Of a DNA stretch of 32,000 nt, positions 2,840 to 19,685 are shown piece after piece. How positions within the stretch are numbered: the first letter of the stretch is position 1; each line of letters starts with the position of its first letter. Under the pieces are notes generated by a model. The model searched no databases. It was not told where the DNA came from and was given only the letters and a program-made list of their open reading frames with translations. This DNA comes from Candidatus Helarchaeota ASGARD archaeon Hel_GB_B (GTDB lineage: Archaea > Asgardarchaeota > Lokiarchaeia > Helarchaeales > HEL-GB-B), in NCBI GenBank assembly GCA_005191425.1, contig SUPR01000014.1, forward strand, positions 1-32,000, given 5' to 3'. Made by a program: the position numbers and the translations under genes.

Positions 2840-3316
2840 ATGCCCAGAAGACAAGTCGTTATTGGACGAAAAACTCATGCTAAGGGAGAAACTTTTGAAT
2901 TAGAGAAAAAGGACAGATATTTTTTAAATGTATCTTTAATGTCATTAAAAACAAGAAGAGATTATGATATTGGGAGAGGTGGTGAATTTTTCTTTAGAGT
3001 TCATAGAAAAGGTGAATTACGGGGAAGACGGTCTCCAGATCATGGCCAAATTGAACTTATGGAAAACCAGGTATTTGAAGCCCGTCAAGACTTCACGCTT
3101 TGGACTGAATTTATTCGGTTGAAGCAAGGAGACCCAAAAGAAGTTAATTTACATATCAAGTTATTTGAGCATGATTTAATAAAAAATGAAAAAATAATTG
3201 ATGAACATATTGCAATTAAATTAGGGATGGCACAAGCAAAATATTTAGTTATTGAAGATAAAAAAGGGAATACTAAAGCAAAATTAAAGATAACTTCTGC
3301 AAGAACTAGATTTTAA
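2840..3316 (+). CDS. Hypothetical all-beta protein, possibly C2-domain-like
   Basis: The ORF opens at 2816, but the ATG at 2840 follows a GTGATA RBS-like motif (MPRRQVVIGRK). Alternating beta-strand pattern; LHIKLFEHDLIKNEKIIDEHIAIKL resembles the C2 late-strand pattern. The CDS is well supported, the fold is tentative. Confidence 0.7.
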   Translation: MPRRQVVIGRKTHAKGETFELEKKDRYFLNVSLMSLKTRRDYDIGRGGEFFFRVHRKGELRGRRSPDHGQIELMENQVFEARQDFTLWTEFIRLKQGDPKEVNLHIKLFEHDLIKNEKIIDEHIAIKLGMAQAKYLVIEDKKGNTKAKLKITSARTRF

Positions 3317-13766: not shown

Positions 13767-14855
13767 TCAATCATTCTCCTTCCCAGCTTTTAATCTAAAA
13801 ATGCCTTTCAATTCATTTATTAATTGAGATTTTAATTGAACTCGTGGATTTAATTTTGGTTCCTTAAAAATTTTTCTTGGTTTGAATTGTATTCCAGTAT
13901 TTGGGACTAATTTATATAACTGAGAAATATCTTGACGCAATTCATCAATTTGTTTAAAAACAATTTGTAATTGGTTACTCAACGAATCTTCAATAGTAAA
14001 TAATGAATTAAAGTAAGTCAAAAAATCACTATTTTGAAGATTTGCTAAATTATAAATGCTTGACTTATAAATTTTAAATTCAAACTTGTTTGTCAATATT
14101 GTCTCAATTTTTTCGGCTAAATATTCAAACTTTTCTTCAAATATTATATCATTAACTATTTCAGGGTCATATTTATGGATTAAAACAATGAATTCACAAT
14201 CTTCTTTCTTATTGAAATTTGCAATTATATTTGCAATTTCTCTTAAATATTTTAAAGTTTCTTCAAATCTTCGCTCATCTTGGATATCAATGACATAAAA
14301 TACAAGTGATAAATGATCAAAATATCTATGTGGGTTTTTTAAATATAAACCTCGATATTTTTTCTGCCCTCCAAGGTCTAAAATACTAATATTAAAATTT
14401 CTTAATAATAGATGCTCTCGTTTCATACCAATTGTGGGCTTAATCTTTGAAATTTCATCATGTTTAATTGACTTCTTAAAAATATTAATTATTGTAGATT
14501 TACCTGCATTATCTAGTCCTATAAATGTTATTTTAGTCTTTATTTTCGATTTTATATCTATAATTTCCGTAATCCTTCTTTTTAAATTTAAAATTTTATT
14601 TGTAAAATTAATATCACTAAAAATTTGCTTATTTTCAATAATTCTCTTGAAGTGTAATTTATATAAGCCATTAATTGAAAAAATTTTAAAATCTTCCTTC
14701 AAGATTTCTATTTCATTTTTGTTTAAATCTTTAATAGCACTAATTGGTAGCGTTAAAAATTCATCTAAAGAGAAATTAAATGATTTTATTTGTTCATTGT
14801 TCAATAATTCTTTAATTAAGTCGATATCAAGCCTTTCTGATTCTATGATTTCCAT
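13767..14855 (-). CDS. Asgard-type small GTPase (Arf/Rag-like) with an N-terminal extension and a C-terminal coiled coil
   Basis: G1 GLDNAGKS, G2 KPTIG, G3 DLGGQ, G4 HKYD, G5 SSI; YVID strand; about 105-aa N-terminal and about 80-aa C-terminal extensions. Confidence 0.9.
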   Translation of the reverse strand: MEIIESERLDIDLIKELLNNEQIKSFNFSLDEFLTLPISAIKDLNKNEIEILKEDFKIFSINGLYKLHFKRIIENKQIFSDINFTNKILNLKRRITEIIDIKSKIKTKITFIGLDNAGKSTIINIFKKSIKHDEISKIKPTIGMKREHLLLRNFNISILDLGGQKKYRGLYLKNPHRYFDHLSLVFYVIDIQDERRFEETLKYLREIANIIANFNKKEDCEFIVLIHKYDPEIVNDIIFEEKFEYLAEKIETILTNKFEFKIYKSSIYNLANLQNSDFLTYFNSLFTIEDSLSNQLQIVFKQIDELRQDISQLYKLVPNTGIQFKPRKIFKEPKLNPRVQLKSQLINELKGIFRLKAGKEND

Positions 14856-15021
14856 AATTATCTAAAAAGCTTTTTGAAAAGTAATATTTCTAACTTTTAT
14901 AAGATTTATACCAAATTTTTCTAATGTTTATACACAAAATAAAGAATAAATTAAAGGGAATTTTGAATAGGGCATTTAAAAAAATTAATAATGGTAATGA
15001 ATAAAAAGTATTAATATTTTA

Positions 15022-15969
15022 TTAAGAACAAGCGGTATTCTTAATTTCATTTATTTTCTTCCGAAGAGTTACATCTGAAATAAACGAAATTTTTGCAATT
15101 TTACTCTGATTAATTTTATATTCTTTATATTTTTTCATAACTATATAAATAGCAGCAGCTGCATAGGATTTTGGATCTCCGCTCACAATTAGTCCATGTT
15201 TTTTTGCATTTTCAAAAAGGTTAATAGCTTCTATCTGATATTGAGATGGAATTTTTAATTCATCACCAAACCTGGAAATAAAAGGTGGAATTTTTTGTGG
15301 CGGTAAATTTATATCTAATTCATTTAGAATAAGCCGATAATTTTTCGCGATTTTTTTCTCATCAATTTGCGAGGCATATGTTATTTCTTCTAAAGTTCGA
15401 GGTAAATCTAAAAGTCTAATCGCAATATAAATACAAGCAGCTACTAATTGGTCAATTGACCGACCTGTTGTTAGCCTTTTACTTAATACAACTTTAAAAA
15501 TCCTATTTGCCTCGCGAATTACCTGCTTAGGAAGCCTCAATACAGCTGATATCTGCCCAAACTTGGGATTCGCTACCATAATATTTCTTTCATATGAATT
15601 TGTAATCGATTTTTGAATTTTAGCGAGTTTCGCATATTTTATCTTGTTTTTTACAGATAAAGGATAACCAAAAATATCCATGTTATTATTTGAAATTAAA
15701 GTTCTATAACCATGGTTATTATAAAATGGCTCATTAATCCTTTTATTTTTTATATCATCAGCAGAAAAAATACGATTTTCACTCATAGATAACATAGGGC
15801 CTTTTACAACACCACAATTTTCACAAACATAAATGCCCCTATATAAAATTATATTTGGATTATCACAACATTTTTCATCAAAATCAGAAGATTTAACATC
15901 TGGCTTAAATTCTATATCTGTATTAATTCTAAATTCCATCTTTTTATATTCTAAATCTTCAGCCATCAA
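15022..15969 (-). CDS. tfb: Transcription initiation factor IIB (divergent TFB paralog)
   Basis: Zinc ribbon CCDNP...YVCENCGVV; cyclin repeats (REANRIFK, GRSIDQLVAACIYIAIR...PRTLEEI, GDPKSYAAAAIY, NQSKIAKISFISDVTLRK). Confidence 0.92.
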   Translation of the reverse strand: MMAEDLEYKKMEFRINTDIEFKPDVKSSDFDEKCCDNPNIILYRGIYVCENCGVVKGPMLSMSENRIFSADDIKNKRINEPFYNNHGYRTLISNNNMDIFGYPLSVKNKIKYAKLAKIQKSITNSYERNIMVANPKFGQISAVLRLPKQVIREANRIFKVVLSKRLTTGRSIDQLVAACIYIAIRLLDLPRTLEEITYASQIDEKKIAKNYRLILNELDINLPPQKIPPFISRFGDELKIPSQYQIEAINLFENAKKHGLIVSGDPKSYAAAAIYIVMKKYKEYKINQSKIAKISFISDVTLRKKINEIKNTACS

Positions 15970-16193: not shown

Positions 16194-16628
16194 ACCGCCA
16201 TATCGTAAAAAATTAAAATAACTTCAATAATTTTAGTTTTTATTAAAAAAATTTTTAAGAATAAGATATCAATATTTTTCTTAAAATAGATTCAAATTTT
16301 AGTTTTTTCCTAATAATTTCTTTTGATTTTAATGTAGTCTTTTATAATATCTGATATATTTTGCTTTTTACCCATATTTTTTTCTAATATTAATTATATT
16401 TTGGTATATTTTTTTGAATAGACTTTTACTTATTATTAGTCATGACTTTATTTTTTTAAACCCCGCATTTTACGTAAAAAAATCAAGAAAAATTCATTTT
16501 ACAGATTTTTTTATTATTTTTAAAATAAGTCATATTTTTATTTGATGAATGTTTATTCAAATTAATAACATTGGTTAGATCAATCATCGTCAAATCAATC
16601 GCCTAATATAATTATATTGAGGCATGGT

Positions 16629-18311
16629 ATGTTGGTATTCAATATAGAAGAGTTGGAAAGAATTGCCGAAAATCACCTACAAACGAAAAATTACTTGAAC
16701 TGCGCGCAAACGCTTTCTTTAATTGCTGATTTTTTTATAAACAAGAATGATGAAGAAAAATACAATTTTTATTATCAAAAAATTTTGAATTGTTTTAAAA
16801 TATCCGCTGAACAGGAAGATATCGACTTTATGGAAGCAGCTGAAAGATGGTGTGGAGCAGCGTGTTTGGCAAAAGACATTGATTTAAATGAGTATAAAAA
16901 GTGCGTAAATAAAATGGTCGAATCTTTGGAGTCTGCAGCATTAAATGCATTAAAAAAAGAAAATTATAATGATGCTGGTGAATATTATCAACAAGCTGGC
17001 AAATATATCAAAGATGAATTAGACGATAAAAAATTTCAGAACTTTTTTAAAAAAGCTATTGAATGCTATTCAAAAATAATTAATGTAAGAATAAGTCCAG
17101 ATCAAAAGGAAGAATTAGCAAAATTTTATATTAAAATTGCTCGACTTTATGAAGAATTGGACGACCAGGCAAATGCTTTAAATCTATATAATGAAGCTAT
17201 CCAAGCAATTGAATCAAATAAAATAGTCTCTTCCTATGAACTTTTGGCAAAAATCTATAATTATAAAGCAAAATGTTTACAAAAATATCCTGTCGAAAAA
17301 GTCGACCCTGAGGATTTAATATTAAAATCAATAAATTATCTCAGTCTAGAAGCTGATAGAAATTTGGAATTAAAAAATTACTTGAAAGCTGCTGAAAATC
17401 TTTGTCTGGCAAATAATTTATACGAAAAAATACAAAAGAAGGAATTAAATATTAAAAATTTAATCATAAAAGAAGCAAATTGTTATAAATATGTCGCTGA
17501 TATGTTAAAATCGAACGGCGATATATTACAAGCTGCGAAATTTGAGAGAGATGCTGCTTTTTGTTATTATAAATTAAATGACCATAATAAAGCAATAAAA
17601 TTACTATTAATAACAGCTGAACAAATGGAAAATGAAAAACAATATTTAATATCAGCTGAAAATTATCGTGATGCCAGTTTAGTATATGATCAATTAAAGG
17701 ATTATATTAATTGTGGTGAATGTGCATTTAAAGGTGGGAATCTCGCGAAAATTGGTGGCGACGAATATAGTGCACTTGAAAATTTCAAGATTGCATTCAA
17801 TTGTTTCAGTAAAATAGGGGAAAAAGACTTAATTCATAAATGTAAAAAAGAATTAACTAACTGTTTATCCAAAATTGCAGAAGGAGAAATTGAAGTAAAA
17901 AATTATCACTTAGGGGGAACTTATTTGTTTGAAGCTGCTAAGTATGAAGACAATGAAGACCTTTATAGGTCATATCTTGGGCGGTCGTTGGATTCCTATT
18001 TGAAAGCTATTGATATAGCTATTGATGATTCAAACTATTTTATTGCAGCTTATTCTTTATGTTGTGCAGGACTCGTGATGGTCCTATTAAATCGAACAAA
18101 TGACATAATCAATATACTAAAGGAATATCCTGAATTAAATAATGAACGATATACCTTATTTCTTAACGACTTTGTAAATTCTATATTAACTAAAGATATA
18201 TCTAATCAAAAATTAAAAAATATCAAAGAAAAATACTATAAGCTTATTTCAAATTCTAATGAAATTCAAAACCTTGTTTCTTTAATAGAACAGCGCGTTG
18301 GGGAAAATTAA
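16629..18311 (+). CDS. Large SNAP-like (alpha/gamma-SNAP, TPR-like) helical solenoid
   Basis: The ORF opens at 16617; ATG 16629 follows GAGG. Many repeats of the form AAE....AA..A/Y.K (AAERWCGAACLAK, AGEYYQQAGKYIK, AAENLCLANNLYEK, AAKFERDAAFCYYK, SAENYRDASLVYDQ). The C-terminal CAGLVMVLL...EYPELNNERYTLFLNDFVNSI resembles the SNAP C-terminal bundle. Confidence 0.8.
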   Translation: MLVFNIEELERIAENHLQTKNYLNCAQTLSLIADFFINKNDEEKYNFYYQKILNCFKISAEQEDIDFMEAAERWCGAACLAKDIDLNEYKKCVNKMVESLESAALNALKKENYNDAGEYYQQAGKYIKDELDDKKFQNFFKKAIECYSKIINVRISPDQKEELAKFYIKIARLYEELDDQANALNLYNEAIQAIESNKIVSSYELLAKIYNYKAKCLQKYPVEKVDPEDLILKSINYLSLEADRNLELKNYLKAAENLCLANNLYEKIQKKELNIKNLIIKEANCYKYVADMLKSNGDILQAAKFERDAAFCYYKLNDHNKAIKLLLITAEQMENEKQYLISAENYRDASLVYDQLKDYINCGECAFKGGNLAKIGGDEYSALENFKIAFNCFSKIGEKDLIHKCKKELTNCLSKIAEGEIEVKNYHLGGTYLFEAAKYEDNEDLYRSYLGRSLDSYLKAIDIAIDDSNYFIAAYSLCCAGLVMVLLNRTNDIINILKEYPELNNERYTLFLNDFVNSILTKDISNQKLKNIKEKYYKLISNSNEIQNLVSLIEQRVGEN

Positions 18312-18468
18312 ACCACAAATTTTTGGGGGGAAATTTTAGTTAACTATTTTAATTAAAATTATTTAAAATAAATTATATTTGAATAATAATAATTATTTAA
18401 TAAATTTCAAAAATCATTATTTGAAGTATTATTTTTTATTTGGTTAAAAAACAGCTTTAATTAAAAAG

Positions 18469-18606
18469 GTGAGTAAAATATCGGAAATATCTGACAAAAA
18501 GAAATTTAAGATTGTAAAAAAAGATTTATTAGTCGGACTTAAATATGCAAGGACTCTTGACGAGATAATTGCATTATTAAAAAGAAAAATTAGAGAATTG
18601 ACATAA
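18469..18606 (+). CDS. Unannotated 42-45 aa helical microprotein, paralogous to the N-terminus of the next gene
   Basis: Translated by hand: (M)SKISEISDKKKFKIVKKDLLVGLKYARTLDEIIALLKRKIRELT*. GGTGA RBS at 18468-18472; start GTG 18469 or ATA 18478. Below the ORF-track length cut-off. Confidence 0.75.
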   Translation: MSKISEISDKKKFKIVKKDLLVGLKYARTLDEIIALLKRKIRELT

Positions 18607-18621
18607 TGGAAGTTTTAAAAT

Positions 18622-18975
18622 ATGTTATCTGATAGAAAAAAATGGGCATTGGTAAGAAAACAATTGTATGTTGCAATTAAAAAAGCTCGGTCATTAGATG
18701 AAATTATTTCCATATTAAAAGACTGGTATGCAGAATTAACAGATTCGGATAGTGAAGACTCAATTCCCCATATAAATGTACAAATTAACCCTTCAGTTGA
18801 AAAGGCATCAGTACCTTCAGAAACTACTTCTGAAATGTTCGAGGCTCCTGAAGAATTTAAAAGGGAAAATTTAGAAGAGAAAGTTGAATTAATAACATGT
18901 CCCCATTGTGGAGAAAAAATTGAATATACTCAAGGGACTGTCTTTTGTCCAAATTGTGGTATGCCCATAGATTAA
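18622..18975 (+). CDS. Helical hairpin, acidic linker and zinc-ribbon protein
   Basis: LSDRKKWALVRKQLYVAIKKARSLDEIISILKDWYAELT, then an acidic S/E/P-rich linker, then CPHCGEKIEYTQGTVFCPNCG. Confidence 0.85.
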   Translation: MLSDRKKWALVRKQLYVAIKKARSLDEIISILKDWYAELTDSDSEDSIPHINVQINPSVEKASVPSETTSEMFEAPEEFKRENLEEKVELITCPHCGEKIEYTQGTVFCPNCGMPID

Positions 18976-19685
18976 TACATATATTCTGGTAGAGTATTCA
19001 AAATTCTTTGAATTCGCTGGGCTAAATCATTATTACCTGTTTGTTTGCATATTTCTAAACCTTTTTTTAATGTATCTTCAGCTTTATTGTAATTTTCAAT
19101 TGTTATTAAAGCTGAACCTAAATAATACAAGATAGTAGCTCGTTCAGATATAATTTCTGGGTCATTTGAATTTTTAGTCATTTGAAATGCTTTTTCCAAT
19201 GTTTCTATTACTTCATTGGGGTCTCCGAATTTACTTGTGGCTATTGGAAGGTAAAAATTTCTGATATCTTCTATGGAATATATTTTTTCAGGTAATTTAT
19301 CTTTTGTAATCTTTTCAGTTTCAGATTTAAAAGCTTCTATAGAGTCTATTTTTGCAAGTTCAATTAATTTGTCAATGAAATCTCGCGGGTCCTTTTTTAT
19401 TTCCTTTAATTTTTTATCAAGTTCATTTAAATTATTGACAAGAAAAGAGTTGGATGCTTTATTTGCAATAAGAAGTCCCTTTTTAATAAATTTCTCAGCT
19501 GCAGAAAAGTTATTTATATAAATATTTATAAGCGCAGAATAATAAAAAATAAGTGTCCTGAATGTAGTATTATTCATTAAATCTTTTACATCAATTACCT
19601 TTTTAATTCTAAGCAGAGCATCATCAAAATGTTGACTTGTTATATCCGTTTTTATCGTATCAAAAAATTTATATATTTTCTCTAT
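18972..19685 (-). CDS. TPR-repeat protein (N-terminally extended relative to the ORF track)
   Basis: TPRs: TLIFYYSALINIYINNFSAAEKFIKKG and ATILYYLGSALITIENYNKAEDTLKKGLEI. The frame stays open upstream of ATG 19577 and encodes EKIYKFFDTIKTDITSQHFDDALLRIKKV. Likely start ATA 19685, after GGGGCG. Confidence 0.8.
   Translation of the reverse strand: MEKIYKFFDTIKTDITSQHFDDALLRIKKVIDVKDLMNNTTFRTLIFYYSALINIYINNFSAAEKFIKKGLLIANKASNSFLVNNLNELDKKLKEIKKDPRDFIDKLIELAKIDSIEAFKSETEKITKDKLPEKIYSIEDIRNFYLPIATSKFGDPNEVIETLEKAFQMTKNSNDPEIISERATILYYLGSALITIENYNKAEDTLKKGLEICKQTGNNDLAQRIQRILNTLPEYMY

Follow-up and report, generated by a model that had tools for sequence, protein, structure and literature searches.

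The window, a 32,000-nucleotide stretch of the genome of the Asgard archaeon Hel_GB_B (contig SUPR01000014.1), carries two small genes that follow each other on the same strand (Table 1). The first encodes a stand-alone, basic two-helix hairpin. The second encodes a larger protein in which a paralogous hairpin is joined by a linker to a zinc ribbon. The positions of both ORFs, their strand and the 15-bp gap between them agree with those given by an initial reading of the DNA made without database searches (the sequence-only reading). That reading had placed the pair between a SNAP-like gene and a convergent TPR gene. Both flanking genes do give TPR matches, but the SNAP label found no support: among the Pfam matches of the 564-aa protein at E ≤ 1 there was no SNAP family, and its TPR matches are weak.

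Table 1. Features of the two-gene hairpin locus and its neighbours in the window
Feature	Position	Strand	Basis
Upstream gene, 564-aa TPR-repeat protein (the "SNAP-like" gene of the sequence-only reading); context only	16617-18311	+	Pfam TPR_12, 6.1e-7
GGTGA Shine-Dalgarno-like motif, with the annotated GTG (18469-18471) inside it	18468-18472	+	Read from the sequence
Small gene, stand-alone basic two-helix hairpin, 45 aa	18469-18606	+	GTG start; ORF list and BLASTP
Intercistronic spacer, 15 bp, with a weak GGAAG ribosome-binding motif (18608-18612)	18607-18621	+	Sequence
Long gene, 117 aa	18622-18975	+	ATG start; ORF list
Long gene, residues 1-41: paralogous hairpin	18622-18744	+	BLASTP; AF2 helices 2-21 and 25-41
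Long gene, residues 42-90: linker, acidic, Ser/Thr-rich, disordered in the model	18745-18891	+	AF2
Long gene, residues 91-117 and stop: C4 zinc ribbon	18892-18975	+	Pfam Zn_Ribbon_1
Downstream convergent gene, 201-aa TPR protein; context only	18972-19577	-	Pfam TPR_12, 2.1e-7

The paralogy of the two hairpins, which had first been noticed as a gapless match between the small ORF and the start of its neighbour, was confirmed by BLASTP. Residues 7-45 of the small protein align with residues 2-40 of the long protein with 21 identities and 30 positives over 39 positions and no gaps (composition-adjusted E 2e-12). When the entire 3.5-Mb assembly was searched in six frames, no copies of the domain other than these two came up. 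The hydrophobic core positions are the same in both hairpins, and both are basic, with a pI of 9.2-10.6 across the family (9.2 for the long hairpin of the window).

In the AF2 model of the long protein the two helices listed in Table 1 are separated by a turn and followed by about 45-50 low-confidence residues and a two-stranded zinc knuckle, with beta-strands at residues 89-92 and 99-102. The mean pLDDT of this model is 67.5. Block means reach 79-87 over residues 11-40 and drop to 42-62 over residues 41-90, with values below 50 at residues 42-46 and 52-70. The C-terminus reads CPHCG, 12 residues, CPNCG, and matches Pfam Zn_Ribbon_1 (PF13240) with E 1.4e-5 and 25.2 bits, barely above the cut-off of 25; the matches to Zn_ribbon_3, DUF7577 and DUF7575 lie under their cut-offs. 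All four ribbon cysteines are kept at all loci of the family described below. The second knuckle is FCPNCG at 8 of 11 loci, a count in which a near-identical strain of the window (L065) is taken to have the motif of the window, and reads FCPKCG in G001 and FCHNCG in G006. By its sequence, the C-terminus of the long protein is thus a generic predicted CPxCG zinc ribbon, in agreement with the ribbon assigned by the sequence-only reading. NZF zinc fingers carry a ubiquitin-binding Thr-Phe signature; this signature is absent from the ribbon, and an NZF reading of it was set aside.

The long proteins of the family measure 104-147 aa and their linkers 44-82 residues. In the clade of the window the linkers contain 19-26% Asp plus Glu and 7-9% Pro (26% and 8% in the window, where the linker was delimited as 53 aa for composition), while in the other clade they contain 12-33% Pro, with Pro runs of up to 11 residues. 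Since its composition and length vary, the linker behaves as a variable spacer. The short copy had been described as strongly basic and the long copy as adding an acidic linker, and both statements are correct for the window; however, the long hairpin is basic as well, and the acidic linker is specific to one clade. Polyproline runs of 6-11 residues, in linkers with 28-33% Pro, were seen in L048 (180-623), L049 (3001-3435) and L064 (4142-4579).

A small gene followed by a long gene, on the same strand and 8-16 bp apart, was found at 11 loci, which come from about ten different organisms or assemblies: the window (with L065), L011, L030, L056, G006 (L033 plus L042), L047, L048, L049/L050, L051/L052, L053/L054 and L064. 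The pair at L011 belongs to a second species of the genus of the window (G001), those at L030 and L056 to two further NCBI Helarchaeota assemblies, and that of G006 to another family of the order, its long gene being split over two contig ends (L033 and L042). The remaining six pairs, at L047, L048, L049/L050, L051/L052, L053/L054 and L064, lie on metagenomic or MAG contigs. A related-locus search with the small-gene alignment contributed L064 and L065 alone. Among 1.84 billion representative proteins, the hairpin profile retrieved about ten clusters at E < 1e-6, and among 400 Asgard species genomes the family is present in three (G000, G001 and G006), all of the order Helarchaeales; four other genomes of this order, 82-94% complete, gave no match with the profile. 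Hairpin identity across the family goes down to about 50%. As far as these searches extend, the pair is a tiny family limited to a few Helarchaeales. A locus with just one of the two genes was not found, and the pairing of small and long genes is conserved at every locus found.

Is the small ORF a gene? Orthologues of 42-46 aa occur at 10 further loci besides the window. Over all 55 pairs of small-gene cores the median pN was 0.22 against a median pS of 0.79, at which synonymous sites are saturated, and the long hairpins gave a pN of 0.31 against a pS of 0.72, the small copy being the more conserved of the two paralogues. Seventeen positions of the small protein are invariant among the four species compared, and the probability that the small ORF would be open after shuffling at the same composition is 0.005-0.023 per locus. 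To judge from these comparisons, the 45-codon ORF is a genuine gene under purifying selection, and purifying selection acts on both paralogues, with pN far below pS in each, as the sequence-only reading had supposed. In the relatives the small ORF is intact wherever the long gene is present, and we encountered neither its absence or disruption, nor neutral evolution, nor a lost partner. The small gene is less hidden than had been claimed: the 45-aa product of the window is already in public protein sets, an orthologue is on record at NCBI as a "hypothetical protein", and a small gene of 43-46 aa is called at L048, L049, L051 and L056. The description as an unannotated ORF does apply to L047 and L053/L054, where gene callers overlooked it. 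The sequencing runs that carry DNA of the locus are hydrothermal-vent metagenomes, and among those listed there was no RNA run.

The start codon of the small gene probably differs from the annotated one. Five loci have ATG, GTG or TTG, all canonical starts, exactly five codons ahead of an invariant Asp, and this start falls 5 nt past GGTGA in G006 and L049 and 6 nt past it in L047. The window, L030 and L056 have ATA at this position, and L051 has ATT. At these four loci (window 18468-18480; L030 3843-3855; L056 about 3000-3012; L051 about 856-868) the ATA or ATT lies 5 nt past GGTGA or GGTGG, a motif that contains the annotated GTG. A non-canonical start is therefore probable for the small gene at all four, and its product in the window may be a protein of 42 aa that begins at the ATA at 18478-18480.

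Both cistrons carry a ribosome-binding motif of their own, and in the other clade a strong motif of the GGAGG, GAGGG or GGGG type comes right after the stop codon of the small gene. This arrangement fits co-transcription and roughly equimolar synthesis of the two proteins. A fusion by read-through or frameshifting was rejected, since the two ORFs stand in frames 0, 1 or 2 depending on the locus and the window has two in-frame TAA stops. In Rfam the locus gave no more than a SNORD25 match of 19.5 bits (E 0.32), below the gathering score of 39, and this match was disregarded.

Twenty hairpins, ten from each paralogue, were placed in one maximum-likelihood tree, where a single branch, with support 95/93, separates the small from the long copies. 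The sub-clade of L048 and L053 is present in both halves of the tree; that of the window, G001, L030 and L056 forms a clade among the long copies (95/85) and is unresolved among the small ones. The split between small and long copies and the recurring sub-clades indicate one old duplication, which would predate the divergence of all known members and would have been followed by co-inheritance and co-divergence of both genes. The two copies of the window show 21/38 identity, the highest among all small-long pairs. Recent gene conversion between them is unlikely, given a pS of 0.65 and their separation in the tree.

Each paralogue has residues of its own. In LLxG[IL]K, Gly is invariant among the small copies and is replaced by Ala in nine of ten long copies and by Glu in that of G001. 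At the third position of RK[IVL]xE the small copies carry Ile, Val or Leu, and every one of the ten long copies carries Tyr. The long hairpin usually ends in EL[TK]G ahead of the linker. Such paralogue-specific fixed residues would fit an asymmetric interface. Besides the pairs we observed a solo relative of the hairpin, P0015 (L055 670-1041; profile E 9.7e-7), on a contig of just 1 kb. It has no small ORF upstream, and its C-terminal domain of about 80 residues is different and without a zinc ribbon. P0015 combines the Gly of the small type with the Tyr and Thr-Gly of the long type, and from this combination of the Gly and Tyr types it may resemble the undivided ancestor.

The hairpin, a basic two-helix domain of about 38 residues, appears to lie outside any described family and to constitute a previously undescribed small family, and its lack of resemblance to anything familiar had already been remarked. 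It gave no match in Pfam, NCBIfam or PHROGs. A PDB profile search reached a best E of 0.69 with a TOG-domain protein and also listed helices of RI-type LRR proteins, which were judged chance matches. Foldseek against the PDB returned zinc-knuckle rows alone, at E of at least 0.24 and including NZF and RanBP2 fingers, and the weak structural matches included HVO_2753 (6ydh). TM values in the Atlas fold search were at most 0.35. A shape as simple as a two-helix hairpin may, however, have remote relatives that such searches miss. A feature search of the ESM Atlas yielded a single generic cluster, of Zn_Ribbon_1 at 0.79, and nothing usable for the small protein. The hairpin is also not a single TPR repeat: no TPR family matched any of the 20 hairpins at E ≤ 5, whereas TPR_12 matches both neighbouring proteins.

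Conservation of the gene neighbourhood is much narrower than that of the pair. Only L011, L030 and L056 have an orthologue of the 564-aa TPR gene upstream of the pair; downstream, an orthologue of the 201-aa TPR gene occurs in L011, a gene of similar size and position occurs in L030, and at the loci of the other clade the gene is absent. The other seven loci have unrelated neighbours (FmdE or FmdC-like, PEP-utilizers, GH2, C25/CHAT and OB-fold SSB-like genes), and across the pair loci no gene neighbourhood points consistently to a pathway. With the neighbours reshuffled between loci, each gene of the pair has only the other as a conserved partner. The synteny with TPR genes that the sequence-only reading had set as a test is thus confined to the clade of the window (window, L011, L030 and L056).

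We next consider whether the two proteins pair. Complex prediction for the small and long proteins gave a score of 0.33 in all three runs, against 0.00 for the best of three controls, which amounts to weak support. The contacts agreed between runs by at least 86%, the pLDDT of the partner was at least 70, and the predictions were built on shallow alignments. In the calibration of the method, 58 of 80 solved complexes and 2 of 110 mismatched pairs attained this mark, but scores of 0.60 or less came from only 7 of those 80 complexes and from both passing mismatches, and a score as low as 0.33 is more often wrong than right unless pairing is already likely. We also modelled an artificial read-through protein consisting of the small protein, the spacer and the long protein, with stop codons written as Gly and the five in-frame loci aligned. 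Four helices resulted, with a helix pLDDT of 77-83 and a pTM of 0.42, no more confident than the long protein alone. A VIA wide search with this model retrieved generic helical bundles only (Z ≤ 6.0). Containing no contact information, the read-through model neither supports nor refutes pairing, although it and the AF2 model of the long protein do present both copies as the helical hairpins that had been proposed. On the models, heterodimerisation is plausible, with weak support; for the four-helix heterodimer suggested by the sequence-only reading, the predicted complex counts in favour, but weakly. The genetic evidence favours binding: the two genes strictly co-occur, co-diverge and are coupled in an operon, and their fixed residues are asymmetric.

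Taking these data together, we propose that the locus is a bicistronic operon of two ancient hairpin paralogues whose products pair as an asymmetric hetero-oligomer, and we put the probability of this reading at about 0.5; that the small and long proteins form a heteromer of some kind has even or slightly better prospects. Both genes would be translated from one mRNA. The two hairpins would come together in a four-helix bundle that is asymmetric, whether in a heterodimer or in a larger hetero-oligomer, and each hairpin pair would bear one tethered zinc-ribbon arm instead of two. More speculatively, the complex would most likely be a small nucleic-acid-binding or adaptor unit, a role proposed because it would combine a basic bundle with a ribbon of the kind that typically binds nucleic acids or proteins. 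That it would bind nucleic acid or an acidic partner is a guess from the pI of 9.2-10.6 and the generic ribbon.

The same genes could encode an antagonist of the microProtein type, in which the small hairpin would titrate the zinc-ribbon protein into inactive heterodimers in competition with long-long pairing. Their layout fits the published definition (PMC5381583, PMC7534434), BLASTP establishes the paralogy, and a heteromer is predicted, if weakly (0.33 against 0.00 for the best control). Yet a single operon with the small gene first and a ribosome-binding motif for each gene predicts constitutive co-production, and the stronger conservation of the small copy (pN 0.22 against 0.31) and the co-divergence of the two copies are what one would see with an obligate partner, so that we hold antagonism to be improbable. 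The sequence-only reading had left the small protein as either a partner or a dominant-negative regulator; the shared operon, the 8-16 bp spacing and the separate ribosome-binding sites make the second role less likely than that of a stoichiometric partner. We likewise think it unlikely that the two are independent proteins, each with its own homo-oligomers or its own targets. Despite divergence to about 50% hairpin identity and reshuffled neighbours no one-gene locus was found, and the 8-16 bp spacing is kept everywhere. Against this, the adjacency could be just a relic of the tandem duplication, the shared hydrophobic core positions make homodimers plausible, the interaction prediction is weak, and the solo relative P0015 (L055) does without a small ORF upstream. 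That the small ORF is a translated leader (uORF), which would tune the expression of the zinc-ribbon gene through a peptide with no function of its own, is hardly credible: it lies directly upstream and near enough for translational coupling, but what is conserved is the amino-acid sequence and not just an open frame, with synonymous sites saturated and the 17 positions noted above invariant, and the peptide can be recognised as paralogous to a domain that folds.

Two further alternatives concern the targets of the hairpins. They were proposed to be ligands of the flanking solenoids, and might dock as ligands or cofactors into the 564-aa and 201-aa TPR proteins. The window, G001 (L011) and L030 share the gene order TPR, small, long, convergent TPR, and L056 has also kept the upstream TPR gene; however, the genomes that share this context form one clade in the tree and the other seven loci have unrelated neighbours, which makes this proposal very unlikely. 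We also took the hairpin, with its roughly 43 aa, its basic alternating KFKIL-type start and its Thr/Ser-x-Asp-Asp/Glu cap before the last helix, to recall CopG and Arc. By this likeness it would be a ribbon-helix-helix DNA binder, whose basic N-terminal beta-strand pairs across the dimer and reads DNA. RHH_1 (PF01402), however, detects seven domains elsewhere in the genome and misses this locus, hhalign of the 20 hairpins with the ribbon-helix-helix domains of the genome gave a probability of 0.5%, and no ribbon-helix-helix family matched any of the 20 members at E ≤ 5. Residues 2-21 are, moreover, modelled by AF2 as one helix and not as a strand, and we rejected this highly improbable reading.

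How does the proposed hetero-oligomer compare with known systems? The haloarchaeal C(P)XCG proteins are abundant, small and mostly uncharacterised, and some of them affect stress adaptation, swarming or transcription (PMC11241148, PMC6562870, PMC10716476, PMC2253796), while several are reported not to bind zinc (PMC11241148). Like HVO_2753 and HVO_0758 of Haloferax volcanii and Brz of Halobacterium, the long protein has a small archaeal ribbon with two CPxCG knuckles. Most haloarchaeal proteins of this kind are single domains of less than 70 aa, whereas the Helarchaeales long protein is larger and multidomain, and their descriptions lack the N-terminal helical hairpin, the long disordered linker and the paralogous partner gene. 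The likeness is that of the generic ribbon alone, with DUF7575 and DUF7577 under their cut-offs. In its architecture the long protein presumably resembles YabA of Bacillus, in which an N-terminal helical bundle sets the stoichiometry and a flexible linker leads to a C-terminal zinc module that contacts partners. YabA forms a homotetramer and is not known to have a truncated paralogue as its partner. The likeness is one of architecture.

MicroProteins are defined as small, single-domain proteins whose sequence is related to that of an interaction domain in a larger protein with several domains (PMC5381583, PMC7534434), and BLASTP, the alignment and the tree place the small protein within this structural definition. 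Like the eukaryotic LITTLE ZIPPER, miP1a/b and ID proteins, it is paralogous to its larger partner and predicted to pair with it (PMC5381583, PMC7534434, PMC4807768). The eukaryotic examples are separately regulated antagonists of plants and animals, whereas the genes described here share one archaeal operon and are co-inherited, which points to a stoichiometric subunit and not to an inhibitor. It is a long shot, but the locus might be the first prokaryotic operon-encoded system of microProtein style, in which a homodimeric hairpin-ribbon protein was duplicated and one copy lost its effector arm, leaving either an obligately asymmetric, "one-armed" heterodimer or a stump that sets the valency or activity of the ribbon protein.

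The pair defines a previously undescribed, lineage-restricted two-gene module, and an ORF of 42-45 codons in an extremely AT-rich Asgard genome appears as a selected gene with a dedicated paralogous partner. If the asymmetric heterodimer is true, it would be a compact natural case of complex asymmetry arising through duplication and domain loss, and a prokaryotic parallel to the microProtein principle. The family is confined to a few uncultured Helarchaeales and has no link to a eukaryote-like system or pathway, so that for now its wider significance is limited.

Several minor features were observed around the pairs. In L030 a TFIIB-family gene and an Arf/Rag-like small GTPase gene (both by Pfam) occupy positions 1-1185, just upstream of the TPR gene, and two ORFs of 315 and 362 aa in the window (13767-15969) match them by size and position alone; this context is kept within the clade of the window at most. 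In L048 (719-1081), L053 (3415-3768) and L064 (4794-5147), three loci of one sub-clade, the next gene after the pair, on its strand, is a stand-alone gene of about 117-120 aa for a PEP-utilizers (mobile phosphohistidine) domain. At two of these three a PEP-utilizers_C gene lies upstream (in L064, an ORF of matching size and position). In the window the stop codons of the long gene and of the convergent 201-aa TPR gene overlap within TTAA (18972-18975), and in G001 the corresponding genes are 146 bp apart. The TPR orthologues are longer in G001 (244 aa) and L030 (225 aa), suggesting that the 201-aa gene of the window may start upstream of its first ATG.
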